The position numbers and the translations under genes are program-made. The notes under the pieces were generated by a model. The model was not told the origin of the DNA, searched no databases, and was given only the letters and a program-made list of their open reading frames with translations. Positions 37,387-64,000 of a stretch of 64,000 nt of DNA are shown here, piece by piece; positions within the stretch are counted from its first letter, which is position 1; every line of letters begins with the position of its first letter. This DNA comes from an uncultured delta proteobacterium (GTDB lineage Bacteria > Desulfobacterota > Desulfomonilia > Desulfomonilales > Desulfomonilaceae): NCBI GenBank assembly GCA_963729795.1, contig CAVSPC010000054.1, positions 1 through 64,000 on the forward strand. The letters are read 5' to 3'.

Positions 37387-39282
37387 ATGAAGTATGAGGA
37401 AGCTTACAGGGAATCTTTGGCAAGCCCCGAAACTTTCTGGGGGAAGGCTGCCGAAGAGATCGCTTGGGACCGGCATTGGGACCAAGTTCTTGACCGATCG
37501 ACCCGACCTTTCTACCGATGGTTTCGTGGTGGCATGCTGAACACCTGCTTCAACGCTCTCGACTATCATGTCCAACAAGGTAGGGGTAATCAGACGGCCG
37601 TTATTTACGACAGCCCGGTTACGGACACAGTTGAGAAATTCACGTATTCGGAACTCCAGAAGAGGGTATCACGAATCGCAGGTTTCTTGAGAGGGCTGGG
37701 TGTGGGGAAGGGCGACACCGTACTGATCTATATGCCGATGATTCCCGAAGCCCTGATGTCCATGCTTGCTTGTGCTCGTCTCGGTGCAATCCATTCGGTA
37801 GTTTTCGGAGGCTTCGCTCCACGTGAACTGGCAGTACGCGTTGACGATGCAAAACCGAAAGTCATCCTCTCTGCCTCCTGCGGCATCGAAGTGCAGCGGG
37901 TGATCCCTTATAAGCCGCTCCTCGATGAAGCCATCGAAATTGCCACCCACAAACCGGAAAAATGCGTGATGTTTCAGCGGCCTCAAGCGACGGCAGAACT
38001 AAAACCGGGCCGCGATCTCGACTGGCTTGAGCTGGAATCCACGGCCCAGCCTGCGGATTGCGTTTCTGTGGCTGCTACGGATCCGCTGTACATTTTGTAT
38101 ACATCCGGGACGACCGGCAAGCCGAAAGGGGTGGTCCGAGACAACGGAGGACATGCGGTTGCTCTCAAGTGGAGCATGAAACATATATATGATATCGGCC
38201 CCGGAGAAGTGTACTGGGCCGCATCGGATGTCGGCTGGGTAGTTGGGCATTCATACATAGTTTATGCGCCCCTCTTTATGGGGGCTACTACGATAATCTA
38301 CGAGGGTAAACCGGTGGGGACGCCGGACCCGGGGGCTTTTTGGCGTGTCATTTCTCAGCATGGCGTCAAAGCGCTTTTCACCGCACCCACAGCAATTAGG
38401 GCCATCAAGAGGGAAGATCCCGCAGGGGAGTACCTCAAAAAATACGACATGTCAAAATTTGAAACCCTGTTCCTCGCTGGTGAAAGACTCGATCCCGACA
38501 CTTATTATTGGGCGACGAAGCTGTTAGGAAAGCCGGTTATAGATCACTGGTGGCAGACTGAGACTGGTTGGGCAATTTGCGGGAATTTCCGTGGTCTCGA
38601 GGAATTTCCCACAAAGCCCGGTTCGGCTACGAAGCCAATGCCGGGGTATGATGTCCAGATCCTTGATTCCGGGACTGCAACGGAATTAGGTCCCAATCAA
38701 AACGGCGTGATCGCTGTCAGATTGCCCCTACCTCCGGGGAATCTCCCAACACTCTGGAATGATGACCAGCGTTTCATCGAGTCATACATGAATCCTTTCC
38801 CCGGATTCTATCTAACAGGAGATGGCGGGTACATTGACGAAGAGGGATATGTTTTTGTAATGGGCCGTGTCGACGACGTGATAAATGTGGCAGGCCATCG
38901 GTTGTCCACCGGGGGCATGGAGGAAGTGTTGGCGAAACATCCGGATGTGGCCGAGTGCGCGGTCGTTGGAGCAGCCGACGATCTTAAAGGCCAAGTGCCT
39001 CTGGGCTTCGTGGTGCTCAAAGCCGGGGTTACTCGTTCCAAAGAAGAGATAGTTGCTGATGTCATTCAAATGGTCCGCAACGACATCGGCCCAGTTGCCT
39101 CCTTCAAGAAAGCGGTGGTGGTAAACCGACTCCCCAAGACACGTTCCGGTAAGGTCCTCAGGTCGACCATGAGAAGAATAGCAGATGGTGAAGCTTATAG
39201 TGTTCCCTCGACAATCGATGATCCCGCGGTCCTTGATGAAATAGGATCTGCAGTAAAGGAGATCGGATACGGCAAAAGCTAA
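37387..39282 (+). CDS. prpE: Propionate--CoA ligase-like AMP-forming acyl-CoA synthetase
   Basis: 631 aa. The N-terminus aligns closely with E. coli PrpE (ETFWGKAAEEIAWDRHWDQVLDRSTRPFYRWF...). It has the YTSGTTGKPKG AMP-binding motif and a C-terminal [16 protein letters not shown]. Confidence 0.75.
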   Translation: MKYEEAYRESLASPETFWGKAAEEIAWDRHWDQVLDRSTRPFYRWFRGGMLNTCFNALDYHVQQGRGNQTAVIYDSPVTDTVEKFTYSELQKRVSRIAGFLRGLGVGKGDTVLIYMPMIPEALMSMLACARLGAIHSVVFGGFAPRELAVRVDDAKPKVILSASCGIEVQRVIPYKPLLDEAIEIATHKPEKCVMFQRPQATAELKPGRDLDWLELESTAQPADCVSVAATDPLYILYTSGTTGKPKGVVRDNGGHAVALKWSMKHIYDIGPGEVYWAASDVGWVVGHSYIVYAPLFMGATTIIYEGKPVGTPDPGAFWRVISQHGVKALFTAPTAIRAIKREDPAGEYLKKYDMSKFETLFLAGERLDPDTYYWATKLLGKPVIDHWWQTETGWAICGNFRGLEEFPTKPGSATKPMPGYDVQILDSGTATELGPNQNGVIAVRLPLPPGNLPTLWNDDQRFIESYMNPFPGFYLTGDGGYIDEEGYVFVMGRVDDVINVAGHRLSTGGMEEVLAKHPDVAECAVVGAADDLKGQVPLGFVVLKAGVTRSKEEIVADVIQMVRNDIGPVASFKKAVVVNRLPKTRSGKVLRSTMRRIADGEAYSVPSTIDDPAVLDEIGSAVKEIGYGKS

Positions 39283-39491
39283 GATTCCGCGAAGGTCTGT
39301 CATGGCAAACCCGTTCGAATTGCGCTGACTTCGCACTCAGTCAAACGCGGTCGTCAGCTTGACAGAGATTCTTCGACCACTTTTCCGGCGGGAGAGGGCG
39401 TTTCGAGGATTTCCGTTTAATCCTCGTTCGGAGTGCTTGCCAATGAGCGCTTCCCATTGACATTGCGCTCCCCCGGGCAGGGAGGGCCGCC

Positions 39492-39725
39492 ATGAAAAGA
39501 ATCAAGGTTCTATTCGGTAGGCATGAGTTTCACTTACTGATTTTTTGCCTCAGTGTGGTTCTTTTTAGCTGGCCTCTGATTTCTTCTTCGGACCTCGATC
39601 ACATAGATGCAATGTTTGTCTATCTTTTTGTTTGCTGGACTGTTGTCATTTTCCTTCAATTTCTCATAAGCCGAGTTCTGCTGCCCCCTCATTCTTCCCA
39701 GCCGACCGACGACAGCGACCAATAG
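39492..39725 (+). CDS. Small two-helix membrane protein upstream of the sensor kinase (CbrX/DUF4212-like position)
   Basis: 77 aa with two hydrophobic helices. Its stop is 9 nt before the kinase start. Confidence 0.4.
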   Translation: MKRIKVLFGRHEFHLLIFCLSVVLFSWPLISSSDLDHIDAMFVYLFVCWTVVIFLQFLISRVLLPPHSSQPTDDSDQ

Positions 39726-39734: not shown

Positions 39735-42497
39735 GTGCTCGACTCCTTCTCAGTCCTGATGGTTTTCTGCCTCTATATGGGGATCCTTTTTCTCACCGCC
39801 CTGTGGGTGGAACGGAGGTCAGCGGAAGCCAAGAGCCCGGTGGACAACTCCATTGTTTATTCCCTTTCTCTCGGGGTTTATTGCACTGCCTGGACGTATT
39901 ACGGGAGCGTCGGAAAAGCGGCAACATCGGGACTGCTATTTCTTCCCATATATCTCGGCCCCACGATAGTCATAACCCTGTGGTGGATAGTGCTTAGAAA
40001 GCTGGTAAGGATAAAGACCATCCACCATATAACGAGCATCGCGGATTTCATTTCAGCCAGATACGACAAGTCCCTTTCCGTCGGCGCACTTGCTACACTG
40101 ATGGCACTGATCGGGACCATGCCTTACATTGCTCTACAGTTTAAAGCCATCTTCACCACTTTTGAAATAATCACGTCAGAGAAAGGGGCACCTCCTTCTT
40201 GGATCACTCTCCATCTGGGGCCCGTGGTAGTCGGCCTAATGATAGTTTTCACCATAGTGTTGGGTGTAAGGCGACTGGATCCCACTGAGCGACATCCCGG
40301 GCTGATAATGGCCGTAGCGGTAGAATGCCTCGTTAAGCTGGTGGCTTTCCTTGCGGCCGGGGTCTTCGTCACTTACTTCATGTTTGGAGGATTCGGGGAC
40401 ATATTGAACCGACTTTCAACCGAACTCCCCGCACAAATTGTCCCTACGTGGAATGGCGATCAGGCATGGTCAGTCACATGGATGACTTATCTCATTCTGT
40501 CCATGTCTGCAATAATGTTTTTGCCGCGCCAGTTTCATATAAGTGTAGTGGAGAATTTTGACGAGAAGCACATCCGCACCTCCCTCTGGCTCTTTCCTCT
40601 TTACATGTTACTAATCAATATCTTTGTGTTTCCCATTGCGATGGGCGGGATACTCAAGGGATACAGCCCGTGGGAAGCGGACACGTTTGTCCTGGGGCTG
40701 CCGCTTCATGCGGGACACAAATGGCTGTCCTTGCTCGTTTTCATTGGAGGTGCCTCTGCTGCCACAGGCATGATAATGATAAGTTCCATCACGATCTCCA
40801 CCATGATTACAAATCATTTCTTGTCGCCCGCGGTGGGTCGAGTTCCAGGGCTTGCATTTCTTAGAAGACGACTCCTTCACTGCCGTTGGGCCGCCGTTGC
40901 CCTTGTAATTCTAATAGGATATTGGTTCGAGCGGGGGGTGGGCGAGTCGTATATGCTCGTGAATATCGGGATGATATCGTTTGCTGCTGCCTTTCAGTTC
41001 GCTCCGGTAATACTAGGAGGAATTTTCTGGCGCCGTGGTAACAAGGCGGGGGCCCTTATGGGCCTAGCCGCAGGATTTGCAATCTGGTTTTACACTTTGT
41101 TGTTGCCCGCGTTCGTCCGGAGCGGGTGGATTGCTAACAAATTTCTTGAGGAGGGGCTCTGGGGCATTGCTTTTCTCCGACCTGAGCACCTCTTTGGGGT
41201 CCGCTCATTAGATTCTTTGTCCCACACCGTTTTCTGGTCAATTGTTTTCAACACGGGACTATACATTCTCGGATCTCTTGTTTTTAAGCAAAGCCCCTCG
41301 GAACAAAGTCTCGCGGAAAACTTTGTAGGATCTTTGACCGCCGAACAAGCGCTAAGCGGATCATCACGCCGGGAATCCCACATAGACCTGGCTTTGAAGG
41401 CTGGAATAATAGCAGAGCTTTTCGGTCAGTTCTTCTCGGAGGAAGAAGCCCGCACCATGACCCTGAAATGCCTGCGTCAGGCGCTTCTCGAGGCCACAGA
41501 CAGGATTTCGATAGTCGAACTGGCGCAACTGCACAGCGAGGTCGAGAGACTTCTCGCCGGCTCTGTGGGAGCAGCTTCAGCCCACCGTATACTGGCACAA
41601 TCCGATCTGTTCACCGAGCAGGAAGCTAGAGATCTTTCAGAAGTGTACGCCGAGATACTTGCGGGTTTGAAGGTCACGCCGGACGACCTGAAACGGCGGA
41701 TCGACTATCATCAGGAACGGGAAGCGCTTCTTGCCCAGCATGCTTCAGAACTCGAGGCAAAAGTTCGAGAACGCACTCGAGATTTGGAAGCTGCTCAGGG
41801 GGAATTGATAAAGCGGGAGCGGCTGTCGGTGCTTGGCCAGCTCACGGCGGTCGTCAGTCATGAGCTAAGAAACCCACTCGGGGTGATCAGCTTTTCGGCT
41901 TATTATCTCTCTAAGAATATTAAAGAGCTAGATGAAAAACTCACGAAGCACCTCAATCGGATCGGAGAACAAGTCGGGCATTGCGACCTGATTATCGACG
42001 AATTATTGGAATACACACGGGAGACTCGGTCATCACTTGCAAAAAGTGAGATCAATCCGTGGCTGGAAACGGTCCTTGACCAAATTTCCACGCCCAAGGG
42101 AATCACTTTGAAGCGGGAATTAGCTTCCGACCTACCTCCGGTCATCTTCGACGGTGAGAAGTTCCGCCGAGTCGTTATCAACCTTGTTGAAAACGCGTTT
42201 CACGCGGTGCAGGCACGAAGCGCCAAAGAGAGAGGCTCCTACCGGCCGCTTGTCACCGTCTCTACCTCCATGAAAGACGATGTAGTTAACATTAAGCTTG
42301 CGGACAATGGAATCGGGATGGATACTGAACAGGAATCGCGGGCCTTTGAACCTCTGTTTACCACCAAGCCGCGCGGTACAGGCCTAGGGCTCGCAGTGGT
42401 TAAGAAAGTTGTGGAAGAGCATCAAGGTCGAGTGTCGCTTTTGAGCCGGCGCAATCACGGGACTACCGTCACAGTTTCCCTAACGGTTGCACGGTAA
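39735..42497 (+). CDS. Hybrid sensor histidine kinase with an N-terminal sodium:solute symporter (SSF)-like domain, CrbS/CbrA-like
   Basis: About 13 TM helices of SSF type at the N-terminus, a linker with a coiled coil, a HisKA H-box (VVSHELRNPLGVIS), and a HATPase_c domain (N-box VENAFHA, G-box GTGLGLAVVK). Confidence 0.85.
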   Translation: MLDSFSVLMVFCLYMGILFLTALWVERRSAEAKSPVDNSIVYSLSLGVYCTAWTYYGSVGKAATSGLLFLPIYLGPTIVITLWWIVLRKLVRIKTIHHITSIADFISARYDKSLSVGALATLMALIGTMPYIALQFKAIFTTFEIITSEKGAPPSWITLHLGPVVVGLMIVFTIVLGVRRLDPTERHPGLIMAVAVECLVKLVAFLAAGVFVTYFMFGGFGDILNRLSTELPAQIVPTWNGDQAWSVTWMTYLILSMSAIMFLPRQFHISVVENFDEKHIRTSLWLFPLYMLLINIFVFPIAMGGILKGYSPWEADTFVLGLPLHAGHKWLSLLVFIGGASAATGMIMISSITISTMITNHFLSPAVGRVPGLAFLRRRLLHCRWAAVALVILIGYWFERGVGESYMLVNIGMISFAAAFQFAPVILGGIFWRRGNKAGALMGLAAGFAIWFYTLLLPAFVRSGWIANKFLEEGLWGIAFLRPEHLFGVRSLDSLSHTVFWSIVFNTGLYILGSLVFKQSPSEQSLAENFVGSLTAEQALSGSSRRESHIDLALKAGIIAELFGQFFSEEEARTMTLKCLRQALLEATDRISIVELAQLHSEVERLLAGSVGAASAHRILAQSDLFTEQEARDLSEVYAEILAGLKVTPDDLKRRIDYHQEREALLAQHASELEAKVRERTRDLEAAQGELIKRERLSVLGQLTAVVSHELRNPLGVISFSAYYLSKNIKELDEKLTKHLNRIGEQVGHCDLIIDELLEYTRETRSSLAKSEINPWLETVLDQISTPKGITLKRELASDLPPVIFDGEKFRRVVINLVENAFHAVQARSAKERGSYRPLVTVSTSMKDDVVNIKLADNGIGMDTEQESRAFEPLFTTKPRGTGLGLAVVKKVVEEHQGRVSLLSRRNHGTTVTVSLTVAR

Positions 42498-42547: not shown

Positions 42548-42913
42548 GTGAAAAGGCGCATCCTTCTAGTGGACGACAATGAGCTATTTCTTGACAGTGC
42601 CCGCGACGTATTGGAAAGTGAAGGCTATGCAGTGATTACCGCAGAAAGCGGTGAGGAGGCCCTGGCCCGGATACGTTCCGAATATTTTCCGGTTGTCGTC
42701 ATGGACATTAAAATGGCGGGGCTGGACGGTGTTGCAACCTTTGTAGAAATGAAAAGGGTTAGGCCGGGCATACGGGTTATAATGTGCACAGCGCATCTGA
42801 TGGAACATCTAATCCGCAGGGCTGAAGAGGCGGGAGCATTTGCGGTCCTCAAGAAGCCCTTCCGGATCGCCCTGCTCCTGGACGCCATAGAAGATGCCTT
42901 CCGGGTCGAGTAG
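42548..42913 (+). CDS. Single-domain response regulator (CheY-like receiver only)
   Basis: 121 aa with LLVDDN, a phospho-acceptor Asp in VVVMDIKMAGLDG, and a conserved K in LKKPF. GTG start with a GGAGGA RBS. Confidence 0.8.
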   Translation: MKRRILLVDDNELFLDSARDVLESEGYAVITAESGEEALARIRSEYFPVVVMDIKMAGLDGVATFVEMKRVRPGIRVIMCTAHLMEHLIRRAEEAGAFAVLKKPFRIALLLDAIEDAFRVE

Positions 42914-43080
42914 GCCGAACTACGAGTACGGCGTAAGCGATTCCGGATTTCATTTGACAATTTTGGCTTATGTGCCACATCCAGCCGACTTTTTTCGGTG
43001 AGCCGCCCGGGCCCGATCACGATTCCTCGTATTCGTGAATTGCCTGGAAATTGCGGAAATTCTGAGTGAAGGGAACGATC

Positions 43081-43632
43081 ATGACGATGACGAGTTTCTT
43101 GAGGAAGATTTTTCCGAACAAGAGGCCGCCTAGTGAAAACGCTCGCAGAATTCTCATAGTGGATGATGATGAGAGCCTAAGCGATAGCCTTAAAGATATC
43201 CTAGAGGGAGAGGGCTACGACATCCTTCTGGCTTCCACAAGGGCTAGGGCGACTGAACTGGCCCAAGAGGCACTACCTAGCTTGGCCATAGTGGACCTCA
43301 AACTCCCGGACGGGTCCGGCACCGCGCTCCTGTCTGAACTGAACAGTGTGGCTCCGGGAATTACCTGCATACTCATGACAGCCTACGCCGACGTGGACTC
43401 TGCGGTCCTTGCCATTGAGAAAGGGGCTTTTTATTACCTACGCAAACCAGTGGACCCGCCTGAGCTTGTTGAATTGGTGGACCTTGCATTTGAGACAATT
43501 CGTCTCAAGGACGAAAAGTTGAAGGCAGAGGAGGCACTTAAAGCTAGAAACAAAGAGCTTGAGGAAACTGTCGAGCGACTTCAGAAGCTTACGGACCAGA
43601 GTACCGGTCAAAATCCTTCAAGGCGAAAGTAA
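43081..43632 (+). CDS. Response regulator: receiver domain plus a C-terminal coiled coil, with no DNA-binding domain
   Basis: ILIVDDDESL, acceptor Asp in LAIVDLKLPDGSG, K in LRKP, then a KLKAEEALKARNKELEETVERLQKL coiled coil. Confidence 0.75.
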   Translation: MTMTSFLRKIFPNKRPPSENARRILIVDDDESLSDSLKDILEGEGYDILLASTRARATELAQEALPSLAIVDLKLPDGSGTALLSELNSVAPGITCILMTAYADVDSAVLAIEKGAFYYLRKPVDPPELVELVDLAFETIRLKDEKLKAEEALKARNKELEETVERLQKLTDQSTGQNPSRRK

Positions 43633-43637: not shown

Positions 43638-44345
43638 TCAAAATAGCCCCAGGCTGCTTCGGCTCATTGTATGAAGGTCTATCAGAGTTTTGCATCCGAA
43701 GCCTTGCATCTTTTTGACTATGAACACAAACAAGCACGCTGCCTGGAATGCATCTCCGAGGGCGTCGTGCTGTTCGAATGTCGGCAGATGGTATTTACGA
43801 GAGAGCGTTTTAAGGTTGTATCCGGCTGCCACTTCGATCCTGTCATAATAGCTCCCGAGTTGCCGCTCTTCATAAACCTGGGTCAGCTTCATGGAATCCA
43901 GGCAAGGGTTTCGCAAGGTCCCGCCCAGAAGTTTTCGTGCAGCCCTATTTATAAACGCCAGGTCTAGCCCGATGAAATGACCTACCAACAGAGCGTCACC
44001 TAGGAAATCCACAAAGTCAGGCAGAATCTTCTTCAGTTCCGGTGCGCTTTCGATCTGATCCGGAGTTATCCGGTGAATCAATGTGCTCACCTTGGGCATG
44101 GACTGCTGAGGTTTCACGTACGAAAAAAATGTTTCTCCCGTGATTATTTGTAAGCCATCTATGCGCACTGCCCCGATAGACACTATTGCATCGTGACGCA
44201 GGTTGAGCCCGGTCAGTTCGGTGTCAAGGGACACAAACTGGTATGTTTCTATTGGCTTGGTCCGGTCAAATCGTTCGAAGCGCCTGCGGTTTGCAATGAT
44301 TGCGGGGTGCTTATCGTTGCGAATCCATGGCCACTTCAACTTCAC
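43638..44345 (-). CDS. DnaQ-like 3'-5' exonuclease (DEDDh family)
   Basis: Exo I motif VSLDTELTGL, Exo II motif around LLVGHFIGLDLAF, and Exo III motif HDALGDAFQAA. It lies immediately downstream of the two DUF294 genes. Confidence 0.75.
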   Translation of the reverse strand: MKLKWPWIRNDKHPAIIANRRRFERFDRTKPIETYQFVSLDTELTGLNLRHDAIVSIGAVRIDGLQIITGETFFSYVKPQQSMPKVSTLIHRITPDQIESAPELKKILPDFVDFLGDALLVGHFIGLDLAFINRAARKLLGGTLRNPCLDSMKLTQVYEERQLGSYYDRIEVAAGYNLKTLSRKYHLPTFEQHDALGDAFQAACLFVFIVKKMQGFGCKTLIDLHTMSRSSLGLF

Positions 44346-52743: not shown

Positions 52744-52957
52744 TTAGTGGGGACGGCCGTCCGATCCTCGTGAGGCGTTGCCGATTCCAAAACATACCAC
52801 TCGATACTTCAACGTCCGAGATTTTCAACAAAATCCGTAAACAAATTGACAGCCCCACCGCAGACTGTTATGGTGCCATGCTAGATTCCCGGTCGGGGCG
52901 CATGTGTCCCCGTGCTCGAAATGGTTGAACTGGGAGATAGGGCTGCGCAGATCAATC

Positions 52958-53383
52958 ATGAGTAGATTTCTAACACCGATACGCGAGACAAAGCTCAGGA
53001 TTTTAATGTGTCTTGCAGTGGCCGCACTTGTCCAACCTCATCTGGTGTGGTGTTTTGAGGCAAGCGGGCAGATCAACGTAGAGGGCCCGGTGTATTGTTG
53101 TGATTTGCCGGTTTCCTCCGCCCAATCCGGAGATCACTCCCTTTGGAAGCCTTGCTGCGAGTCTTGTGACTCCTGCTTTGACGTCCCTATATCGCTGACA
53201 GCGTTGAAGGGGGATGCGTCGGCAACAAAGGTGACATTGAAAGTGCAAGGAGCCCAATATGTAGTTCCAGCAGGTCTCCATTCCGAACGTACTTTTATTC
53301 CGTCATGTGCCTACAATTCCTGCCATTCTCACCTATGTAGTCAATCTCTTCATGCAGTCCAATCGACAGTTCTTCTTATTTGA
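52958..53383 (+). CDS. Hypothetical Cys-rich exported protein
   Basis: Putative signal peptide MSRFLTPIRETKLRILMCLAVAALV. About 15 Cys residues, including CC and CCESCDSC. It sits upstream of the metal-efflux genes. Confidence 0.3.
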   Translation: MSRFLTPIRETKLRILMCLAVAALVQPHLVWCFEASGQINVEGPVYCCDLPVSSAQSGDHSLWKPCCESCDSCFDVPISLTALKGDASATKVTLKVQGAQYVVPAGLHSERTFIPSCAYNSCHSHLCSQSLHAVQSTVLLI

Positions 53384-53591
53384 TCCTCTCCAAAAGTAGA
53401 TTTGCTGCGTCTCGCCTAGAAAAGAGCGTGTAGCGGTCTGCTGTCTTCAAGCATCATCTATCCAAGACGATTACATTCTGGGGGTGTGTTCTAACACAGA
53501 AAGAAGTCAGGGCAGATCACCAGAGAAAACTGCAGCATGCACTCTGCATCTTCCGAGATGCGCTGCAAATGCAGCACAGAGGAGAGGTACA

Positions 53592-53828
53592 ATGAAAAGA
53601 CTCACCGCTATTTTGGCTCTTATCATCTTATTGGCTCCGATTTCCGTGGCCTTATCGAGGGGAGGCAACTTCACTTATATACTCGACCAACGGTGGAAAC
53701 GCGAACAGGCCTTCCAAAAGAGGCAAGACGAAAAGTTTAAGAGGCTTGAACGTGAGGCTGACAGAGCAATGGTGTCTCCCAATCCGGCCCGAAATGTCCG
53801 TCCGAGGGGAACTTTCAGGAATCCTTAG
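53592..53828 (+). CDS. Small secreted basic protein
   Basis: Signal peptide MKRLTAILALIILLAPISVALS. GGAGAGG RBS. It ends 24 nt before the adaptor-subunit gene. Confidence 0.45.
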   Translation: MKRLTAILALIILLAPISVALSRGGNFTYILDQRWKREQAFQKRQDEKFKRLEREADRAMVSPNPARNVRPRGTFRNP

Positions 53829-53851
53829 CCCCTTCAGATACAGAGGAAGCA

Positions 53852-55117: not shown

Positions 55118-55400
55118 CGCCGGCCGCTGAATCTGCCGGAAATAGGTATAGTCCGCTTGCTAAAATGGCATGCGGAAGAAGGCGGGCGGCTGGGAATAAG
55201 CAAAAATGACTGAGCATTCCTTTTCGCAAATACGGTGACGTTAAGACCCGGTACGGAAGAAGATTGCTTTGCTACGCTCGCAATGACAGGTAGTGGGAAT
55301 GTCATTGCGAGGAGTGAAATCCCGCGTTCCCGCGGGAAAGCAATCTCCACTGTGAAAATACGTGGCCGAATTTATGAAACAGAGTACTAAGGTGTAGTTC

Positions 55401-58400
55401 ATGCTCGAACGTATATTGAAATTTTCTATTGAACACAGATTTCTCATTGTTCTCGGGATTGCGGCGCTTGCAGGGATCGGGGTGTATTCGTTACAGCGAT
55501 TGCCGATTGATGCCGTACCTGACATCACTCCAAATCAAGTTCAAATCAACACCGTCGTTGCCGGGCTGTCCCCGGTCGAAATTGAAAAACAGGTCACGTT
55601 CCCACTGGAGACGGCATTGGCGGGGATTCCCGGTCTTATCGGCACCAGGTCCCTGTCGCGAAATGGCTTCTCGCAAGTTGTCGCGGTGTTCGGGGACAAC
55701 ATAGACATTTACTTTGGCAGGCAGCAGGTCAATGAGAGGCTGCTCGAAGCCCGAAGGACCCTGCCTGCCGGGGCAGAGCCTCAAATGGGGGCCATAACCA
55801 CGGGCCTTGGCGAGGTATACGTTTGGACCGTCGACTATGAACATCCCGGCGGAAAGGGCGCTCAGATAAAGGATGATTCACCCGGATGGCAAAGTGACGG
55901 CACTTATTTGACGCCCGAGGGCCACAGATTGGCCACCGGACTGGAACGAATGGCGTATCTCCGAACCGTCCAAGACTGGATCATTCGTCCTCAACTCAAA
56001 GGATTGAACGGCGTAGCCGACGTGGATGCGATCGGCGGGTATGAAAAGAAATATCAAGTTCAGCCGGACCCGATGAAGCTCTATTCGTACGGATTTTCGT
56101 TCAAGGATCTCATCGAAGCGATACAGCGGAACAATTTGAGCACAGGGGCCGGATACATCGAGCGCCAAGGCGAATCTTATGTGGTGCGAGCCGAAGGGCG
56201 AATCGCAAGCGAAGATCAGATTGCCGCCATCGTGGCTGGCGACGCGAGCCGGAATTCCGATCCACATCCATGATGTGGCGACTGTTTCCATAGGAAAGGA
56301 GTTGAGGACCGGCAGCGCGAGTGAAAACGGGCGGGAATTGGTTGTGGGAACGGCTTGGATGCTCGTAGGAGCGAATAGCCGAACCGTTGCCGCTGCGGTG
56401 GCGGCGAAATTGGACAAGATCAACTCAACGCTCCCCGCGGACATTCATGCCAAACCCGTCCTAAGCCGAGTGAAGTTGGTCGACGCCACCATCGCTACGG
56501 TGAGGCGGAATTTAACCGAAGGTGCATTATTGGTAATTACCGTGTTGTTTCTTTTGTTGGGGAACTTCCGCGCGGCACTGATTACTGCCGCTGCCATTCC
56601 CCTTTCCATGCTTATGGCAGCCACAGGCATGGTGCAGATGAAGATCAGCGGAAACCTCATGAGCCTCGGAGCTATTGACTTTGGCCTCATTGTGGATGGG
56701 GCAGTGATTATCATAGAAAATTGCTTGCGCCGACTGGGAGAGAGGCAACATGAACTCGGTCGTTTGCTGACCCTGCCGGAGCGTCTGCAAGAAGTCATGG
56801 TCGCAAGTAAGGAGATGATTCAACCCTCGGTCTTCGGTCAAGCCATCATAATAACAGTGTATTTTCCCATTCTCTCTCTGACGGGCGTAGAGGGCAAGAT
56901 GTTTCATCCTATGGCAACGACCGTCATACTGGCCCTTGTGTCTGCCTTTATCCTTTCTATGACGTTCGTTCCCGCGATGGTTGCGATCGTTATCAGGGGA
57001 CGGGTGAAAGAGACGAAGAACTTGTTGATGCGAATCGCCGAACGGGCATATGAGCCTTGCTTGAGACTGGCGATTCAATACAAGTTCACCGTCGTACTCG
57101 CGGCAGTAGCACTCTTTGCCGCATCCTTGCTCCTTTTTGGGCGATTGGGCCAGGAATTTGTCCCGACACTGGACGAAAAAGACCTGTTGATTCAGCCCGC
57201 CCGTATTCCCAGCACAAGCCTCACCCAGTCTACGACGATGCAGTTTGAAGTTGAAAGGACGATAAAGGGATTTTCGGAGGTAGCTTTAGTCTATTCAAAA
57301 ACTGGAACCGCGGAAATGGCAACTGATCCGATGCCGCCCAACTTGTCGGACACCTTTGTAATTCTCAAACCACGCAAACAGTGGCCCGACCCTGACGAAC
57401 CCAAACAGGAGCTGATAGAGCGGCTTGAAAAGGCACTGAAGAAATTGCCGGGCAACAATTACGAGTTCACCCAGCCGATTCAGATGCGTTTCAACGAACT
57501 CATAGCAGGGGTTCGGAGTGACGTTGCGGTGAAGCTTTACGGGGACAGTTTCGAAGATATGGTGAAGACGGCAAACACCATTGCCGGGGTAATCAAGAAA
57601 GTTCAGGGGGCAGCAGACGTGAAGGTGGAGCAGACACAGGGGGCTCCTACCATAGAGGTGAAAACGGATCGTTCGGCCATCTCACGCTACGGATTAAGCA
57701 TGGCGGATGTCCATGATGCCGTGGCAATTGCTGTCGGCGGCAGAGAAGCAGGGCTGGTTTTTGAAGGAGACCGGCGATTCGACATCATCGTCAGGCTGCC
57801 TGAAACTCTACGGAATGATGTTGAAGCCCTTGAAACCTTGCCTGTGCCTCTTCCAAAAGCAGGAGAAGGAAGAGTACTTCTCACGACTCTCTCCAGAAAT
57901 CCTGAACAAAAAGAAGCGCCTGAGAAAAAGGAATCAGAGAGACGGTACTTTGTTCCTCTTAAGGCAGTAGCCAAGATAGAAGTTAAAGAAGGCCTTAACC
58001 AGGTCAGCCGGGAAAACGGCAAACGCCGAGTGGTTGTACAGGCGAACGTGAGGGGACGGGACCTCGGTTCCTTCGTTGCAGAGGCTCAACAAAAGATTGG
58101 CCGTCAAGTAAAAATCCCTCCAGGGCAATGGTTGGATTGGGGCGGGCAGTTCGAGAACCTTTTGGCTGCAAGAAAACGACTGAGTATTGTAATTCCGGTC
58201 TGTCTCTTTTCGATTTTCTTGCTGCTGTTCAGCGCTTTCAACTCGGTGAAATACGCCTTGCTCGTATTCACCGGCGTCCCGTTGGCTTTAACGGGAGGGA
58301 TTGTTTCTCTTTGGGTGCGAGGGATGCCTTTTTCCATAACTGCCGCCGTAGGGTTCATCGCTCTTGCCGGTGTTGCTGTTCTCAACGGTCTGGTCATGGT

Positions 58401-58689
58401 CACCTTGATCAATCAGTTACGGCAACAGGGGACGCCTCCGGACGAGGCACTTGTCGCGGGGTCGTTGAAGAGACTGCGGCCCGTGCTCATGACGGCACTT
58501 GTTGCGTCTTTGGGGTTTGTTCCGATGGCTCTGTCAACCGGAACCGGAGCTGAGGTACAAAGACCCTTGGCTACCGTAGTCATCGGTGGATTGATCTCAA
58601 GTACTGCCTTGACGCTGCTGGTATTGCCGGCACTGTACGCAATTCTTGCCGGGAAAGACGCTGTAGGTGAGAGTCTAAATCGGGAGTAG
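55401..58689 (+). pseudogene. Heavy-metal-efflux RND transporter (CzcA/CusA family) interrupted by a +1 frameshift at about 56235
   Basis: ORF 55401..56273 is MLERILKFSIEHRFLIVLG..., a CzcA N-terminus. ORF 56179..58689 holds the rest of the roughly 1090-aa pump. The frames join as ...DQIAAIV | LATRAGIPIHIHDVATV if one extra G in ATCGTG-G-CTGGCG is removed. Confidence 0.85.
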
Positions 58690-58707
58690 AAGTGCCGCAG
58701 CCTTCCG

Positions 58708-60447
58708 TCAGACTTCGTGTTCGGAAAAAGGCTCGTCTTGTAAGCCCAATAAATCACCCTCAGGAAGACCCAACTCGCGCGCCCTTAAGACTCTCCTTAG
58801 GAGTTTACCGGATCGTGTTTTGGGAAGCTCGCTGATGAAGTCAACCTCATTCAACTGTACTGCGGAGGAAATATTGGATCTGAGGAAAGCTCTGATTTCA
58901 TGCCGTAACCGCATCGACGGTTTGTAGCCTTCCGAGACCGTGACGAACGCCTTTAGTGAAGATTTTCCCTGAGAAACTTCCTTAGAAATTACGGCAGCTT
59001 CGTGCACGGCAGGATGTCTACACAGAACCTGTTCAATCTCATAGGGGCCGACAATTTTCTCGCCGAACTTGATAAGATCGTCCATACGCCCTTGATGAAA
59101 AAAGTATCCATCTTCGTCTACAATGGCCATGTCACCGGTCAGGAACCAGCCGGGGAGCCGAAAATATGCCCGGTATCTCAGTTTGTCCTGCCATATCTCT
59201 CTCATCATGGCGGGCCACCCGGGCTTAAGGGCTAACTGGCCCAATGTGAGCATGGGAAGCTTCTCCCCGTCTTCAGACACAATCGCAGCTTCGACTCCAG
59301 GTACCGGCTTTCCCATCGATCCTGGCTTGACGTCCATTGACGGGAAATTAGCGAGGCATATCATCCCGGTCTCGGTCATCCACCATGTGTCGTGTGGAGA
59401 CAAGCCTATGTTGCCGCGGACCCAGTGGAACAGCTCCGGCCCAAGCGCTTCACCGACGGTACAAATGTGGCGCAGATTTGAAAAGTCGTATCTCGGGGGC
59501 AGATCCTCGCCTGCATCCATGAGTTTTCGAATTCGACTTGGAGTGGTGTACCATACTTCGACTTTGTGCTTCTCCAGGGTGCGATACCAGCTTGACGCCG
59601 AGAACGGATCGGCCATAACTATTGAGGTTGCTCCACACAGCCAGGGAGCAAACGTGCCGTACATCGTACCCAATACCCAGGCAGGGTGCCCATCGGTCCA
59701 CAATAAGGTGCCTTCATTCAGCTCAAGTACGTATTTTGCCGTTAATTTGAGGCCCAGCATATCCTGATGTGAGTGAACAACCCCTTTGGGGGGGCCGGTG
59801 GATCCCGAAGTATATAAAAGGTAAAGCCGTGCATCCCGTTCGACCCACACAGTTTCGAATTCATCCGGCATTTCTTGAGCCAGGTTTTCGATAACCGACT
59901 CGCCTCGAAAAAGCCCTGGAGAAGGGCCTTCTGTGAGAAGGACGTGTTCGACGTCGGCCATTGCTTCAGGGGGGAGGTTCTCCGCCAGATCAGGATGAGT
60001 CAATATGATTGTCGGCGCAGCGTTACGAATACGGTCTTCAAGTTCGTCAAAAACCAATGTGGGATAAAGCGGACAGAATACCACTCCCATGCGGGCGCAG
60101 GCTATCATTGCGAAATATAGTTCAGGACACGGGTCAAGGTAAATAAACAACCGATCGCCCTTGGTCAAACCATAACGGGAAAGAAGATTGGCCCACTGGC
60201 AAGAAATTCTCCTTAAATCAAGATAGGTGAAGCTCTGCGTCTTCCCGGCCTTTTCCAAGATTAAAGCCTTGATGTGCGCTCTATCCGGCACATGGCGGTC
60301 GATGGCCTCAAACGCTATATTGGTAAGGTTAGGACCTTTCCATGCGAACTCCTCTTCTACTTTTGCCCAGGAGAAGGATCGGTACGCCTGGTCATAGGAA
60401 CTCAGGTTTGCTTCACTGCGTTCGGCTTTGATTCTAGATTTGATCAT
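58708..60447 (-). CDS. acsA: Acetyl-CoA synthetase, short Bacillus AcsA type (AMP-forming)
   Basis: 579 aa that aligns along its whole length with B. subtilis AcsA as I recall it: [57 protein letters not shown], and the ELGLPEGDL tail. Confidence 0.85.
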   Translation of the reverse strand: MIKSRIKAERSEANLSSYDQAYRSFSWAKVEEEFAWKGPNLTNIAFEAIDRHVPDRAHIKALILEKAGKTQSFTYLDLRRISCQWANLLSRYGLTKGDRLFIYLDPCPELYFAMIACARMGVVFCPLYPTLVFDELEDRIRNAAPTIILTHPDLAENLPPEAMADVEHVLLTEGPSPGLFRGESVIENLAQEMPDEFETVWVERDARLYLLYTSGSTGPPKGVVHSHQDMLGLKLTAKYVLELNEGTLLWTDGHPAWVLGTMYGTFAPWLCGATSIVMADPFSASSWYRTLEKHKVEVWYTTPSRIRKLMDAGEDLPPRYDFSNLRHICTVGEALGPELFHWVRGNIGLSPHDTWWMTETGMICLANFPSMDVKPGSMGKPVPGVEAAIVSEDGEKLPMLTLGQLALKPGWPAMMREIWQDKLRYRAYFRLPGWFLTGDMAIVDEDGYFFHQGRMDDLIKFGEKIVGPYEIEQVLCRHPAVHEAAVISKEVSQGKSSLKAFVTVSEGYKPSMRLRHEIRAFLRSNISSAVQLNEVDFISELPKTRSGKLLRRVLRARELGLPEGDLLGLQDEPFSEHEV

Positions 60448-60468: not shown

Positions 60469-61509
60469 TCAATCCGTCCACACGCCATATTTCGAATGAA
60501 AATCGCGGGCGGTTGTGAGCAATAGCTCTCCGGTCGGAGTGCTTTCATTGGGGAGTTTGACCGCAGAGTCCGGTTGTGTCAAGACTTTAAGCACCTCTCG
60601 GACGGACTTCACCAGGGCCGGGATTCTGTATCCTCCTTCAAGGCCAAGAAGCAAGGGAGGATCCCCTACCTCTTTTTTACGATCCAGAATTAGTCTGGTG
60701 AGCATTCCGAAGACCTTCTCTGTGATCTTTGCTCTGCTGAAAATGTCCTGCCCGTGGAGATCAAAGCCGGCGGCTACGAGAATCAGGTCAGGTTTGTATC
60801 TTCTTATAGCTTCCCCCACAACTTCGCCGTAAAGATATATTAAATCGGCATCCTCAATCGCCTTGGTCAGCACCATGTTGACATTATACCCTCCCCCTTC
60901 GCCTGCGCCTGTCTCCTCCCATTCACCGCTGTACGGGAAGATGTTGGTATAGTGAGACGATATGTAAAGCACCTGCTTCTCATTGTAAAACAGATACTGT
61001 AATGCGTTGCCGTGATGCAGGTCCCAGTCCACTATCAAGATACGTTTGTAGTCATATCTTCTCATGGCATATCGCGCGGTTATGCCAAGATTGTTAAAAA
61101 TGCAAAAACCACCGGCTCTGTCCGGTTGTGCATGATGTCCAGGCGGCCGTACCAAAGAGAAACAAACGTCGCACTCACCTGACCGAAGCATCTCCAAAGC
61201 CGTGGTGCAGCCGCCGACCGCTAACCAAGCAGCCATATAAGAGCGTGGACTGGTCGGGGTGTCCTGGGCCAAGTGCGTAAAGTCGAGATTGGCAGTATGC
61301 AATACTTTTCTCACGTACGACGGCGTGTGCACAACCTCAAGATCCTCAAGTGTAACAGGCTGCGGTTTAATATAAATCACCTCTCGAGAAAACTCTGCAT
61401 CCACCATGCTGTAAATGTACTTCAGGCGATTCGGATGCTCAGGATGAATTATGCCCGTCCTATGCTCGAGGTATCTATCATCCCTGACCACTCCGATCTT
61501 AAGCGCCAT
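60469..61509 (-). CDS. Histone-deacetylase-family protein (class I HDAC, AcuC-like protein deacetylase)
   Basis: HDAC signature: PPGHHA, Zn ligands in DWDLHHGNA and GFD. The start is ATG at 61509 or 61521. Confidence 0.8.
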   Translation of the reverse strand: MALKIGVVRDDRYLEHRTGIIHPEHPNRLKYIYSMVDAEFSREVIYIKPQPVTLEDLEVVHTPSYVRKVLHTANLDFTHLAQDTPTSPRSYMAAWLAVGGCTTALEMLRSGECDVCFSLVRPPGHHAQPDRAGGFCIFNNLGITARYAMRRYDYKRILIVDWDLHHGNALQYLFYNEKQVLYISSHYTNIFPYSGEWEETGAGEGGGYNVNMVLTKAIEDADLIYLYGEVVGEAIRRYKPDLILVAAGFDLHGQDIFSRAKITEKVFGMLTRLILDRKKEVGDPPLLLGLEGGYRIPALVKSVREVLKVLTQPDSAVKLPNESTPTGELLLTTARDFHSKYGVWTD

Positions 61510-62005
61510 CGGTTTCCTCAATTCTCAGTGTCATTTTCCTCTCGGACAGGCCCGCATCACAAAATCGAAAGCCCATTTTCTTGTACAACTTTATGGCCTT
61601 AAAGTTGTCGGACTCCACTGTGAGCCAGACCGATTTCAAACCGAGTATCTTGGCGCGCTGAATTGCCATCTGGGTGAGAACAGTCGCAAGGCCGCGTTTC
61701 CTGTGAGGTCCACCCACAAAGATCACGTACTCACCGTCGTTTGTCTCGCTTTTAGGCAAGATAGCCGCATGGCCCACGACCTTCCCCTCTATGATCGCAG
61801 CATAGTTCTCCCCGGTTTGGAGAAGAGTTCGAATCCAAATGTGTCGTGTTGCTTTGTCTGTCGGAGGAAGACCCTGGGCAACCGCTTCGGGCATAAAAGA
61901 GTCGTACATGTCGAGGATACGCTTAAAGTCGCCGGCGCCGCAACTCACCACGACAAACGGTGTACCAAGCCTGTCATGGAAAGTCCTTTGCTCCGTGTGG
62001 TCCAT
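61499..62005 (-). CDS. GNAT-family N-acetyltransferase, a paralog of 52255..52743
   Basis: Motif A HRKRGLATVLTQMAI. The start is trimmed to the ATG at 62005 (MDHTEQRTF...) to match the paralog N-terminus; the track ORF starts at 62164 and would overlap acs. It overlaps the HDAC start by about 11 nt. Confidence 0.7.
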   Translation of the reverse strand: MDHTEQRTFHDRLGTPFVVVSCGAGDFKRILDMYDSFMPEAVAQGLPPTDKATRHIWIRTLLQTGENYAAIIEGKVVGHAAILPKSETNDGEYVIFVGGPHRKRGLATVLTQMAIQRAKILGLKSVWLTVESDNFKAIKLYKKMGFRFCDAGLSERKMTLRIEETDGA

Positions 62006-62105
62006 GATTTTCTTTCGTGGCGCGACGGCCCAAAAAAGATAGTTCCGCGATCCACGGAAGCCAACAACCTTTCTGCCGTGCTGAACCGCCGGTCGGCGGG
62101 TAATG

Positions 62106-64000
62106 CTACGCGCGCAACTCCAAGCGACCCTGGACAAGACTCTCGACAACCGCAGGGTCGGCAATGGCGGAAAAGTCTTTCAGGGTTGTAACATCGCCTG
62201 CCGCGATCTTTTGAAGGATTACTCTGAGGATCTTACCGCTCGGAGTCCGAGGCAAAGTATTAACCCACTGAATGACATCGATTTCGGCGAAGTCGGCGAC
62301 TGTGCTGCGTACTAGATCCATGAGCTCGCTTTTGAGTTCCGCTGACTGCTCCGCTCGATCCCGAAGGTGGACAAACGCATATACCCCCCTGCCTTTTATG
62401 GGATGCGGATAGCCAACTACCGCTACCTCGGCCACCTTTTCGTGCTGAATAATAATAGACTCCAGTTCGGGTATTCCTAGGCGGTGCCCCGCCGAATTAA
62501 TGACATCGTCGACACGGCCGATTATCCAATATTCCCCGTCTTCATCCTGCTTGGCTCCGTCCCCGGTGAAGTACAGACCCGGAACTCGATTGAAATGGCC
62601 TTCCAGAAACCGTTCGTGATCGCCGAAGATCGTCCTCGCCATACCCGGCCAGGCTCGGTCGATACAAAGTACACCCTCTTGATTCGGAAACTTGGCTTTT
62701 TCGCCCGTACCGGGGTCCAATATCACCGGCTTTACTCCAAAGAAAGGAAGCGAGCAACATCCGGCTTTCAAGGGAGCGGCACCAGGAAAAGGCGCGATAA
62801 GAATTCCGCCTGCCTCAGCTTGAGAATACGCATTTACTACCGGGCATCGTCCTCTGCCCACTCGTTCGTAGAACCACTTCCACGTTTCAGGGCTAACCAT
62901 TTCGCGCATGAGACCCAGGAGCTTGAGCGAGGTAATATCGTGTCCATCCACGGAGTTTGGGGCCTGTTCGGAGAGGAATCGGACAACGCTCGGCAGAGTG
63001 CAGAATTTGTCCACCTTGTGCTTGGCCACTATTTCCCACACTCTGTTCGGGTCCGAATAACCAGGCACGCCCTCGAAAATGACAGAGGTGAGGCCGTTCA
63101 ACAGTGGTCCGTAGACTGCATAACTGTGCCCGGCCATCCAAGCTATGTCCTCAGTCATCCACAAAGTTTCTTCATCTTTCAAATCGAACACTAGACGACT
63201 TGTCATCGAGGCATAAAGCAAGTATCCGCCATGAGTATGGACAAACCCTTTCGGCCTTCCGGAGGGGCCGCTTGCATACAAAATGAAGAGAGGATCTTCT
63301 GCATCCATAGGTTCAGGAGCGACGTACGAGGGCAAAGCAGGATCGGCGACTGCTTCGTGCCACCAGATGTCCCTTGTGCCACTCAGTTGAATTGGCTCGT
63401 CGGTGTGCTTAAGGACTATTACCACTTCCACTGAGTTACAGCTCTCAAGGGCTGCATCGACTTTGGATTTTAACAGCACCGGTTCGCCACCGCGAAAGCT
63501 TCCGTCGGCTGTGATCACCGCTTTAGCAAGGCAGTTTTGAATACGATAAGCTAGCGCTGCCGCTCCGAAGCCCGAATAAACCACACAGTGGACCGCCCCG
63601 ATCCTCGCGCACGCGAGCATGGCGATGGGCAACTCAAGCACCATCGGCATGTAAATGACTACTCTGTCCCCGCGTTCGACCCCTCTAGACTTTAGCAGGG
63701 CCGCGAACTTGTTTATTTTTTCGTAGAGCTCCCGATACGTGACAGTGCAAGATCGGCTCGCGTCCTCGCCTTCCCAATGGTAAGCAGGCTTATGGCCGAG
63801 TTTCCCGATATGTCGGTCCACGCAATTGTAAGCCGCGTTGAGTATCCCGCCAGGGAACCACTCGATCCTTGCTTCCTCAAAGTCAGACCGGACCACAACA
63901 TCCCACTTTTTCATCCACGAAAGATAGTTTTCCGCCTGCTCAGCCCAGAAGTTCTCGGCAGAATTCAATGACCTTTCATAGAGTTCTCTGTACATCTCCG
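62106..64000 (-). CDS. acs: Acetyl-CoA synthetase, second copy. The N-terminus lies beyond the 3' end of the window.
   Basis: About 60 percent identical to the Acs at 49287..51251 ([40 protein letters not shown]). The sequence begins at the conserved YRELYERS, so about 25 N-terminal residues are missing. Confidence 0.9.
   Translation of the reverse strand, partial: EMYRELYERSLNSAENFWAEQAENYLSWMKKWDVVVRSDFEEARIEWFPGGILNAAYNCVDRHIGKLGHKPAYHWEGEDASRSCTVTYRELYEKINKFAALLKSRGVERGDRVVIYMPMVLELPIAMLACARIGAVHCVVYSGFGAAALAYRIQNCLAKAVITADGSFRGGEPVLLKSKVDAALESCNSVEVVIVLKHTDEPIQLSGTRDIWWHEAVADPALPSYVAPEPMDAEDPLFILYASGPSGRPKGFVHTHGGYLLYASMTSRLVFDLKDEETLWMTEDIAWMAGHSYAVYGPLLNGLTSVIFEGVPGYSDPNRVWEIVAKHKVDKFCTLPSVVRFLSEQAPNSVDGHDITSLKLLGLMREMVSPETWKWFYERVGRGRCPVVNAYSQAEAGGILIAPFPGAAPLKAGCCSLPFFGVKPVILDPGTGEKAKFPNQEGVLCIDRAWPGMARTIFGDHERFLEGHFNRVPGLYFTGDGAKQDEDGEYWIIGRVDDVINSAGHRLGIPELESIIIQHEKVAEVAVVGYPHPIKGRGVYAFVHLRDRAEQSAELKSELMDLVRSTVADFAEIDVIQWVNTLPRTPSGKILRVILQKIAAGDVTTLKDFSAIADPAVVESLVQGRLELRA

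Follow-up and report, generated by a model that had tools for sequence, protein, structure and literature searches.

Textbooks describe reversible acetylation of the A10 lysine as the way in which acetyl-CoA synthetases are controlled, and to our knowledge dedicated, operon-encoded pairs of an acetyltransferase (writer) and a deacetylase (eraser) are known essentially only from Bacilli, as AcuA and AcuC. Examining a 64,000-nt stretch of contig CAVSPC010000054.1 (GCA_963729795.1; Desulfomonilaceae), hereafter the window, with gene calls taken from its open reading frame listing and from Pfam and NCBIfam scans, we found a four-gene operon, acs2-GNAT2-HDAC-acsA-like, that we consider to be probably a switch complete in itself, by which AMP-forming acetyl-CoA synthetases are reversibly acetylated on lysine. 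As in the acsA/acuABC locus of Bacillus subtilis, a short AcsA-type synthetase with its lysine in an RSGK motif has as gene neighbours a GNAT acetyltransferase and a Zn-dependent deacetylase of the HDAC family, and here too acetylation would be expected to inactivate the synthetase and deacetylation to reactivate it (PMC11255334, PMC13121692). The likeness ends at several points: the GNAT is akin to AcuA in generic fold only, the deacetylase falls into cluster 1 of its superfamily whereas AcuC falls into cluster 2c, and the operon genes are co-directional with a long Acs first, whereas in B. subtilis acsA is divergent from acuABC. An AcuB-like CBS-ACT gene is absent from the operon, and CBS pairs occur in the surrounding island of synthetase and regulatory genes only in two DUF294 proteins 12-17 kb away.

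In Rhodopseudomonas palustris the acetylation components are, as we understand it, dispersed rather than clustered with their targets. That organism resembles our locus in having two acetyltransferases, RpPat and KatA, together with a Zn-deacetylase, LdaA, and a sirtuin, SrtN, that act on many AMP-forming synthetases, Acs and PrpE among them (PMC6640162). The combination of two writers and both types of eraser on many acyl-CoA synthetases is therefore already known from R. palustris, just as the operon logic is from Bacillus acsA/acuABC. Unlike RpPat, which is a large multidomain Pat, the writer of the window is a minimal GNAT in one operon with its presumed targets and eraser, and a role for a sirtuin is unsupported at this locus. 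A single-domain GNAT of comparable size (~160 aa) is the Pat of Sulfolobus solfataricus (ssPat; PDB 3F8K), the best sequence relative with a structure; its known substrate is the chromatin protein Alba and no synthetase, and it differs from the Desulfobacterota GNATs in that these have their own N-terminal motif and are linked in operons to acs and HDAC genes. With the Pat(PatZ)-CobB system of Salmonella and Escherichia coli the locus shares the PX4GK target lysine and a similar GNAT fold, differing in the lack of an NDP-forming acyl-CoA-synthetase-like regulatory domain and in an operon eraser that is Zn-dependent rather than a sirtuin. What appears to be new is that a class II HDAC is paired with a minimal GNAT of the Pat type, that the pair has a fixed place between a long and a short synthetase and that it is spread through the Desulfobacterota; we found no description of such a cassette in Desulfobacterota in the searchable open-access literature, where matches to 'Desulfo' were to desulfo-CoA.

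The four genes make up one tight minus-strand unit (58708-64000) and, judged by their distances, are spaced as an operon: 100 nt separate the acs2 stop from GNAT2, GNAT2 and HDAC overlap by 11 nt, and 21 nt lie between HDAC and the acsA-like gene. By virtue of that overlap, GNAT2 is predicted to be translationally coupled to HDAC. The starts of both genes (Table 1) were settled by reading the DNA and aligning relatives, nine of which keep the GNAT2 ATG; a TTG start for HDAC was rejected, an exact-protein lookup having matched nothing with it and having matched the ATG version. The stretch from acs2 to GNAT2 contains a terminator-like hairpin and T-run (62059-62043, minus strand), common to only one related locus, L008. 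An attenuation model for this gap was dropped, because the hairpin is not kept past that nearest relative and such hits are no commoner than in shuffled sequence; indeed, promoter and terminator scans overall yielded no better than shuffles.

The cassette is conserved well beyond the window. An alignment of the GNAT family was used to scan one genome per species, giving 40 loci with true relatives, all in Desulfobacterota, on which the window proteins were placed by tblastn (loci are labelled L001, L002 and so on; proteins of the GNAT-family clusters discussed below are labelled P0172, P0253 and so on). An acs gene lies directly upstream of the GNAT gene in 35 of the 40 loci, an HDAC gene directly downstream of it in 30 and an AcsA-like gene after HDAC in 31; the order acs-GNAT-HDAC-acsA-like is complete in 28, with contig ends cutting three more, and the distance between GNAT and HDAC is mostly -7 to 30 nt. 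Carriers belong to the Desulfomonilales, Desulfatiglandales, Desulfobacterales and Desulfarculia, and in the last three the cassette persists at only 41-55% GNAT identity; among them is the cultured Desulfonema magnum (complete genome CP061800.1, 6.834-6.841 Mb), in which 2 kb of spacer come before the AcsA-like gene. In at least nine loci an exonuclease-DUF294-DUF294 block lies divergently upstream of the cassette, as it does in the window. Because the full gene order recurs in 28 of 40 loci over several Desulfobacterota orders, the linkage of writer and eraser genes to synthetases is, on this comparison, real. A preliminary description of the window, made from its sequence, had proposed this linkage and had named lack of conservation of the island as the observation that would tell against it; the linkage holds, its label 'AcuC-like' needs correction, and its claim that both deacetylation routes are stacked here is not borne out by this locus.

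That label fails on the properties of the eraser itself. The best PDB relatives of the window HDAC are class II enzymes, namely a catalytic domain of HDAC6 (179 bits), PA3774 HdaH (163) and FB188 HDAH (149), with further matches to Hda1, HDA15, HDAC4, HDAC7 and HDAC10 and lower scores for the polyamine deacetylases APAH (132) and HDAC10 (133); class I HDAC entries are absent among the best 60 PDB matches. Its RPPGHH, DWDLHHGN, FDLH and EGGY motifs are all present, and among 32 orthologues RPPGHH and XGGY are kept in every one and EGGY in 31. Comparison with AcuC was made via published motifs: Graf et al. (2024) tie RPPXHH and XGGY to the 'robust deacetylases' of cluster 1, and place AcuC, with GGGLHH and GGGY, in cluster 2c, whose defining motifs are XGGLHH and (G/A)GGY (PMC11532494). 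By these sequence criteria the window HDAC is classed with the cluster-1 classical Zn-dependent lysine deacetylases, and with RPPGHH/EGGY in place of GGGLHH/GGGY and class II enzymes as best matches, its likeness to AcuC exists at the level of the superfamily only. NCBIfam assigns no family to either validated AcuA or the window HDAC, and so offers no AcuA- or AcuC-type name to compare against. The HDAC protein is found, identical, in a second assembly, GCA_049671785.1, which matches window positions 58542-64000 at 99.67% nucleotide identity.

The writer, in turn, resembles an archaeal enzyme more than AcuA. A profile of the GNAT family finds its best PDB match in the Sulfolobus Pat structure (3F8K; E = 1.6e-13, profile positions 15-149), and hhalign of the profile against AcuA gives a probability of 1.9% (E = 0.026), with AcuA chains lying outside the 60 best PDB matches, so that we rejected a relationship to AcuA; the B. 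subtilis AcuA sequence used here (210 aa) was validated against PDB 9g7f_C (487 bits). Within the family the acetyl-CoA motif reads RKRGLA, E92 and H79 are invariant and Y141 is nearly so (at least 90%), and the Desulfobacterota members have an invariant N-terminal motif of their own, MYD..P...QGLPP...W. A structural model of GNAT2 (pLDDT 85) gives TM scores of 0.73-0.77 to the GNAT domains of Rv0998, SlPAT and PatZ (0.76 to the Streptomyces lividans PAT-Acs complex 4U5Y; 0.71-0.77 to PatZ). The profile matches place the GNATs in the minimal Sulfolobus-Pat lineage of protein acetyltransferases.

A wide survey of the family, by exhaustive search of 1.84 billion representatives, returned 123 clusters at E <= 1e-30. 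Among them, four independent clusters at 50% identity fuse the GNAT to an HDAC domain, one fuses it to CBS domains (P0312) and one joins a histidine-kinase ATPase domain to a GNAT; the proteins concerned are P0253, P0283, P0287, P0304, P0312 and P0172 (L052, L053-L055), of which the GNAT-HDAC fusions P0287 and P0253 are single called genes. The CBS pair of P0312 recalls AcuB. Distant members of the family stand in haloarchaeal-looking gene contexts. On this sequence evidence we regard the family as of Pat lineage with a recurrent HDAC partnership, and its recruitment beside acs genes as specific to the Desulfobacterota.

The candidate targets are the synthetases. As the preliminary description had it, the island contains four AMP-forming synthetases (PrpE-like, Acs1, Bacillus-type AcsA-like and Acs2), and all four have the PX4GK lysine, in PKTRSGK in the first three and PRTPSGK in Acs2; the motif was found in all but two of the synthetase orthologue matches that we scanned. 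This lysine is the acetylation site in Acs, AcsA and PrpE of other systems, and its acetylation inactivates these and many other ANL enzymes (PMC6640162, PMC11532494), Bacillus-type AcsA being the proven substrate class of AcuA and AcuC (PMC11255334). The AcsA-like protein lacks an ACAS_N domain, scores 628 bits against NF003313 (cutoff 729) and keeps its motifs intact, DTWW included; its best PDB match is the 572-aa AcsA chain 9g79_B (9g79/9g7f; 547 bits, the next match reaching 347), and 9g7f contains AcuA as well as AcsA. Acs1 is canonical (1006 bits to NF001208, 996 to TIGR02188 and 800 to Salmonella enterica Acs), with standard A3, A5, A7, A8 and A10 motifs including the acetate-pocket tryptophan (S. 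enterica W414), and its orthologues are the cassette acs genes of other Desulfobacterota, at 78-93% identity (78-87% in distant taxa). The PrpE-like protein has PrpE as its best-scoring NCBIfam family, below cutoff in both models (NF007815, 773 of 955 bits; TIGR02316, 725 of 827), and passes the Acs subfamily NF001208 (674 against 657); because PrpE is the best-scoring family, 'PrpE-like' appears fair as a label, though not as family membership.

Acs2, the first gene of the operon, is a different matter. The second tryptophan of the canonical A5 motif corresponds to S. enterica W414 (numbering from the alignment), and we take it to be the residue that restricts the pocket to acetate. In Acs2 this segment reads NAYSQAEAG, with W414 replaced by S and both T412 and T416 by A, the P-loop is YASGPSGRPKG and GEP has become REM, in a protein that is 58% identical to Acs1 and passes TIGR02188 (cutoff 725); the window end removes ~25 of its N-terminal codons, and the intact protein has 654 aa in L001. 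The A5 change, (V/I)(N/D)AYSQAEAG, runs throughout the Acs2 clade (L001-L011), in which the P-loop and GEP vary and A7, A8 and A10 are retained. Conservation inside the clade is 75-78% for Acs2 and 90-93% for Acs1, Acs2 evolving about three times faster. Its acetate specificity is, from these substitutions, doubtful, and since the acetate-pocket tryptophan is lost, the earlier designation 'second Acs' is right by family score and in name only. More Acs-like paralogues lie by GNAT or exonuclease genes in L017 (365-2311), L020 (2-1864), L021 (10888-12762), L023 (1-1653), L024 (852-2735) and L025 (1141-3006); these have degenerate P-loops (for example FAAPAIGKPRP), A5 segments such as VTTWGQVETG and MNMWWQAESG, and an intact PKTRSGK, and may be pseudo-enzymes or have altered chemistry.

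The conserved operon, the domain fusions, the intact deacetylase site and the Pat-like writer together lead us to favour an Acu-like switch. When acetyl-CoA is plentiful, the Pat-like GNAT would acetylate the A10 lysine (PX4GK) of the neighbouring synthetases, which would block the adenylation half-reaction; the co-translated HDAC would hydrolyse the acetyl group and so restore activity. What the sequences show are the gene content, the operon spacing, the conservation, the family assignments and the intact catalytic and target motifs; which enzyme acetylates which, and in what direction the synthetases run in the cell, we infer. A more elaborate version, in which a hitherto undescribed Desulfobacterota switch combines an archaeal-Pat-type writer with an HDAC6-like eraser to toggle two structurally different synthetases, the long one with part of the CoA-loop signature of Syntrophus Acs1, such that the module could choose between making acetyl-CoA from acetate at the cost of ATP and splitting it with a gain of ATP, while Acs2 serves as an activator of larger acids or as a weak decoy or GNAT partner, is speculative, and we give it only a small chance of being right in all its parts.

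Were the switch to operate as proposed, it would represent convergent evolution of acetyl-CoA synthetase control in a second, independently assembled module, and a likely physiological substrate would for the first time be known both for a class II, HDAC6-like deacetylase of bacteria and for a bacterial enzyme of the archaeal Pat lineage. Sulfate-reducing and related Desulfobacterota turn over much acetate in anoxic sediments and digesters, and the system is compact enough for experiments, comprising four genes and occurring in the cultured Desulfonema magnum. In addition, the partial match of Acs1 to the bias residues of Syntrophus, described below, makes it a testable idea that a backward-running Acs is gated by acetylation.

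Several observations weigh against this reading. The substrate of a GNAT cannot be told from its sequence, which leaves acetylation of the synthetases putative, and Foldseek of the GNAT2 model does not discriminate Pat-type from small-molecule GNATs, on both of which the model superposes equally well, its top E-values going to PA4866, ArsN and SpeG-type enzymes; NCBIfam gives both window GNATs RimI-type matches only, all sub-threshold. The HDAC scores slightly higher against catalytic domain 1 of HDAC6, its best single-domain PDB score, than against domain 2, and a 2026 preprint reports that domain 1 acts on free acetyl-lysine, opposed by a GNAT. The Foldseek and HDAC6 results also speak for a scheme in which the GNAT and HDAC act on a small molecule (lysine and N-epsilon-acetyl-lysine, a polyamine or another amine) while the synthetases supply acetyl-CoA and recapture acetate, the deacetylase product being their substrate; many bacterial HDAC-fold enzymes are indeed small-molecule or polyamine amidohydrolases (PMC11532494). 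We judge that scheme improbable: the polyamine deacetylases score below the 163-179 bits of the lysine deacetylases, the RPP motif is unaltered where the small-molecule hydrolases DmhA and PrpH have RPA, the GNAT has its best sequence relative in an enzyme proven to acetylate proteins, setting and removing an acetyl group on one small molecule from a single operon would be a futile cycle without evident purpose, and the layout mirrors the proven logic of AcsA, AcuA and AcuC. Other discordant points concern the linkage itself. HDAC is missing in 8 of the 40 loci and the upstream acs in 4, GNAT1, at a distance of 1 kb from acs1, may be transcribed from a promoter of its own (a promoter-like site is at 52067-52096), and distant GNAT-family members, like the fusions whose surroundings were looked up (P0287 and P0253 included), have no acs neighbours, which argues that the family as a whole is not dedicated to Acs. 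Added to the many substrates that bacterial GNATs and HDACs often have, this would suit genes that are neighbours by chance or shared regulation only, with general cellular targets; we hold that to be very improbable, as order, orientation and near-zero spacing kept across several orders at such low GNAT identity are not explained by chance.

The preliminary description itself had envisaged a multi-input hub, in which two writers, the Zn-deacetylase and a CobB sirtuin govern synthetases run backwards in a syntrophic fatty-acid oxidizer. Syntrophus aciditrophicus does make ATP with its Acs1 (acetyl-CoA + AMP + pyrophosphate -> acetate + ATP; PMC4992975, PMC8942843), and according to a 2026 preprint G196, T197 and K202 in the CoA loop set the bias of this enzyme, SaAcs1 (PMC13404658). 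The loop reads DGG(Y/F)RAGK in Acs1 of the window and in nearly all of the cassette orthologues, with Gly at the E188/G196 and Lys at the R194/K202 position, so that G190, G191 and K196 of Acs1 match two of the three bias residues, the T197 position having the consensus Gly; Acs2, with the loop DGSFRGGE, has Gly, Ser and Glu at these positions. This resemblance is a lead, not a test, for the reverse-Acs idea at the level of sequence, and the same preprint tempers it: K202E abolished ATP formation in SaAcs1, which speaks against Acs2, and Lys at the K202 position also occurs in the AMP-biased Acs of Cryptococcus neoformans (K221; PMC13404658). A sirtuin gene does exist near 17 kb as had been stated, and a CobB homologue, 40% identical to it, directly follows the cassette on the opposite strand in L026 (13532-14179; a Desulfatiglandaceae metagenome-assembled genome) and L034 (6995-7654; a Desulfobacteraceae one). 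Yet ~20 kb separate the window sirtuin from the point where the island begins on the left, and ~40 kb separate it from the operon. Its neighbours are an ECF sigma factor gene on one side and an open reading frame without a Pfam match on the other, with an ABC transporter operon just downstream, and it is frameshifted (near 17355): MEDLIEKVAQSIVRAKNAVALTGAGIGT* stops at 17362, leaving the start and the GAGI motif off-frame from the SIR2 core, and its NCBIfam CobB score (235 bits) is below the cutoff of 320. The split suggests either a pseudogene or an assembly indel; the acrB gene of the window is also split by one extra base, which makes assembly indels a plausible cause of both frameshifts. 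With the sirtuin distant, among unrelated genes and broken in this assembly, and CobB beside the cassette in 2 of 40 loci only, the locus does not show the two deacetylation routes to be stacked. The assayed S. aciditrophicus sirtuin, moreover, favoured long acyl groups over acetyl.

Nor does the likely host favour that proposal. Desulfomonile was formerly placed in the Syntrophaceae, so that the family guessed in the preliminary description was taxonomically near, and relatives of the window proteins at 85-93% identity are labelled Desulfomonilaceae (class Desulfomonilia, Thermodesulfobacteriota). Desulfonema magnum, which we take to be a non-syntrophic sulfate reducer and no obligate syntroph, has the cassette too; with a Desulfomonilaceae-like host for the window as well, syntrophy is not an evident reason for the cassette, and we regard the syntrophic hub as unlikely. 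The Acu-like switch thus remains our preferred account of the operon, whose place among the other features of the window is given in Table 1.

Table 1. Coordinates of the features discussed, in order along the window
Feature	Coordinates	Strand	Description
CobB-type sirtuin	17217..18068	+	N-terminus 17217-17362, SIR2 core 17343-18068; Pfam SIR2 154 bits
ActP/MctC-like cation:monocarboxylate (acetate) symporter	33758..35707	-	Pfam SSF 295 bits; left edge of island
DUF485 (YjcH-like) membrane protein	35704..36018	-	Pfam DUF485 82 bits; 4-nt overlap with actP start
PrpE-like	37387..39282	+	AMP-forming acyl-CoA synthetase, propionate/acetate class; K589 in PKTRSGK
Sensor histidine kinase, SLC5/SSF-type N-terminus	39735..42497	+	HisKA, HATPase_c, SSF 24.8 bits (cutoff 22.8); CrbS/CbrA-like
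RR1 stand-alone receiver	42548..42913	+	Pfam Response_reg 93 bits; no output domain
RR2 receiver	43066..43632	+	Pfam Response_reg 83 bits; ~50-aa charged coiled C-terminal tail
DEDD (DnaQ/RNase T-type) 3'-5' exonuclease	43638..44345	-	Pfam RNase_T 98 bits; NF006601 138 bits
DUF294 signalling nucleotidyltransferase a	44392..46323	-	cNMP-binding, CBS pair, DUF294 and DUF294_C (Pfam)
DUF294 signalling nucleotidyltransferase b	46422..48425	-	44% identical to copy a; Pfam; syntenic in relatives
Acs1	49287..51251	+	Canonical AMP-forming acetyl-CoA synthetase; K614 in PKTRSGK; CoA loop DGGYRAGK
GNAT1	52255..52743	+	162-aa single-domain Pat-like acetyltransferase, GNAT2 paralogue; Pfam Acetyltransf_1
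RND efflux block	52762..58703	+	orf159, orf114, MFP 53852-55117, AcrB-type pump 55401-58689; Pfam HlyD_D23, ACR_tran
AcsA-like	58708..60447	-	579-aa Bacillus-type AMP-forming acetyl-CoA synthetase, last operon gene; K548 in PKTRSGK
HDAC	60469..61509	-	346-aa Zn-dependent class II (HDAC6/HdaH-like) lysine deacetylase; PF00850 278 bits
GNAT2	61499..62005	-	168-aa single-domain Pat-like acetyltransferase; Pfam
Acs2	62106..64000	-	First operon gene; 5' end cut by window; TIGR02188 796 bits; PRTPSGK

The genes listed in the preliminary description are all present at or near the positions it gave; it had omitted the other regulators of the island and the RND efflux block, 5.9 kb long, that breaks the island up. 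On the left, the symporter is matched by the NCBIfam models MctC (576 bits) and ActP (538 bits), both under cutoff, and is accompanied by a DUF485 protein, the usual partner of actP. The set of acs, actP with DUF485, a DUF294 protein and an SLC5-type kinase recalls the CrbS/CrbR (MxtR/ErdR) system of Vibrio and Pseudomonas, in which the DUF294-type homologue Pflu5625, actP and acs are co-regulated as members of the CrbS/R regulon (PMC5715377). Unlike that system, the kinase here is not a hybrid, since the Pfam scan finds no receiver domain in it, the receivers lack a recognized DNA-binding output and the DUF294 gene is duplicated; neither RR1 nor RR2 has a DNA-binding or helix-turn-helix output in Pfam or NCBIfam, the NCBIfam match of RR2 being to its receiver part only. 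RR1 is kept beside the exonuclease-DUF294 block in L019 and L027, and the exonuclease, the partner gene of DUF294, is syntenic in at least nine relatives. By analogy, the genes on the left of the island are probably there for transcriptional or signalling control. DUF294 copy b is divergent from acs1, with 861 nt between them; Rfam at gathering thresholds finds no RNA family in the whole window and so offers no riboswitch or leader to explain this long upstream region. The window has another gene for short-chain-acid uptake 26 kb upstream of the island; it is AtoE-like (SCFA_trans, 321 bits; 5760-7316, minus strand).

The two GNATs are paralogues (48% identity over 152 aa, E = 4e-51), GNAT1 aligning with the family over its full length, and they had been described as each standing beside an acs gene. 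This is so for GNAT2; GNAT1 is on the same strand as acs1 but 1003 nt downstream of it. That gap (51252-52254) is ~600 nt longer than in L002 and holds, besides the promoter-like site, only an unannotatable 125-aa open reading frame (51646-52023, minus strand). A second acs-GNAT pair occurs only in the window's own clade (L001-L011), where acs2-GNAT2-HDAC-acsA-like faces GNAT1-acs1 and the convergent acsA-like and GNAT1 genes are ~32 nt apart in L002-L006 and L009-L011. Read from this layout, the acs-GNAT part is a lineage-specific duplication and inversion in the window lineage, so the writers are duplicated, as had been claimed, but in one lineage only and with an Acs2 that has diverged at its catalytic motifs. 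Such a duplication and inversion would have been followed by the divergence of Acs2, with loss of its acetate-pocket tryptophan and relaxation of its P-loop, and later by insertion of the RND block.

The RND block is absent from the same eight loci and carried by the window, L001 and L008, a distribution by which it is a later insertion between the two halves. It has no evident tie to the synthetases and does not belong to the regulatory system; a repeat search around it gave short chance matches only, without mobile-element ends. Its AcrB-type pump gene is split (55401-56273 and 56179-58689) by a 1-nt frameshift near 56237, where the window has one extra base (ATCGTGGCTGGCGAC, against ATCGTGG-TGGCGAC in L008); L008 splits the same gene differently, suggesting long-read indel errors. 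A reading of L001, a contig 99.7% identical to the window, as divergent or chimeric past the acsA-like gene was abandoned, because blastn against L008 shows the two loci to share a 3.96-kb insertion (L001 11667-15624; L008 13468-17425), placed between acsA-like and acrB, that the window is without. Its cargo comprises two small open reading frames, a multi-Fer4 protein and an AraC/HTH_18 regulator. A duplicated segment of 317 bp (window 58541-58857), which takes in the final 50 codons of acsA-like, borders it on both sides.

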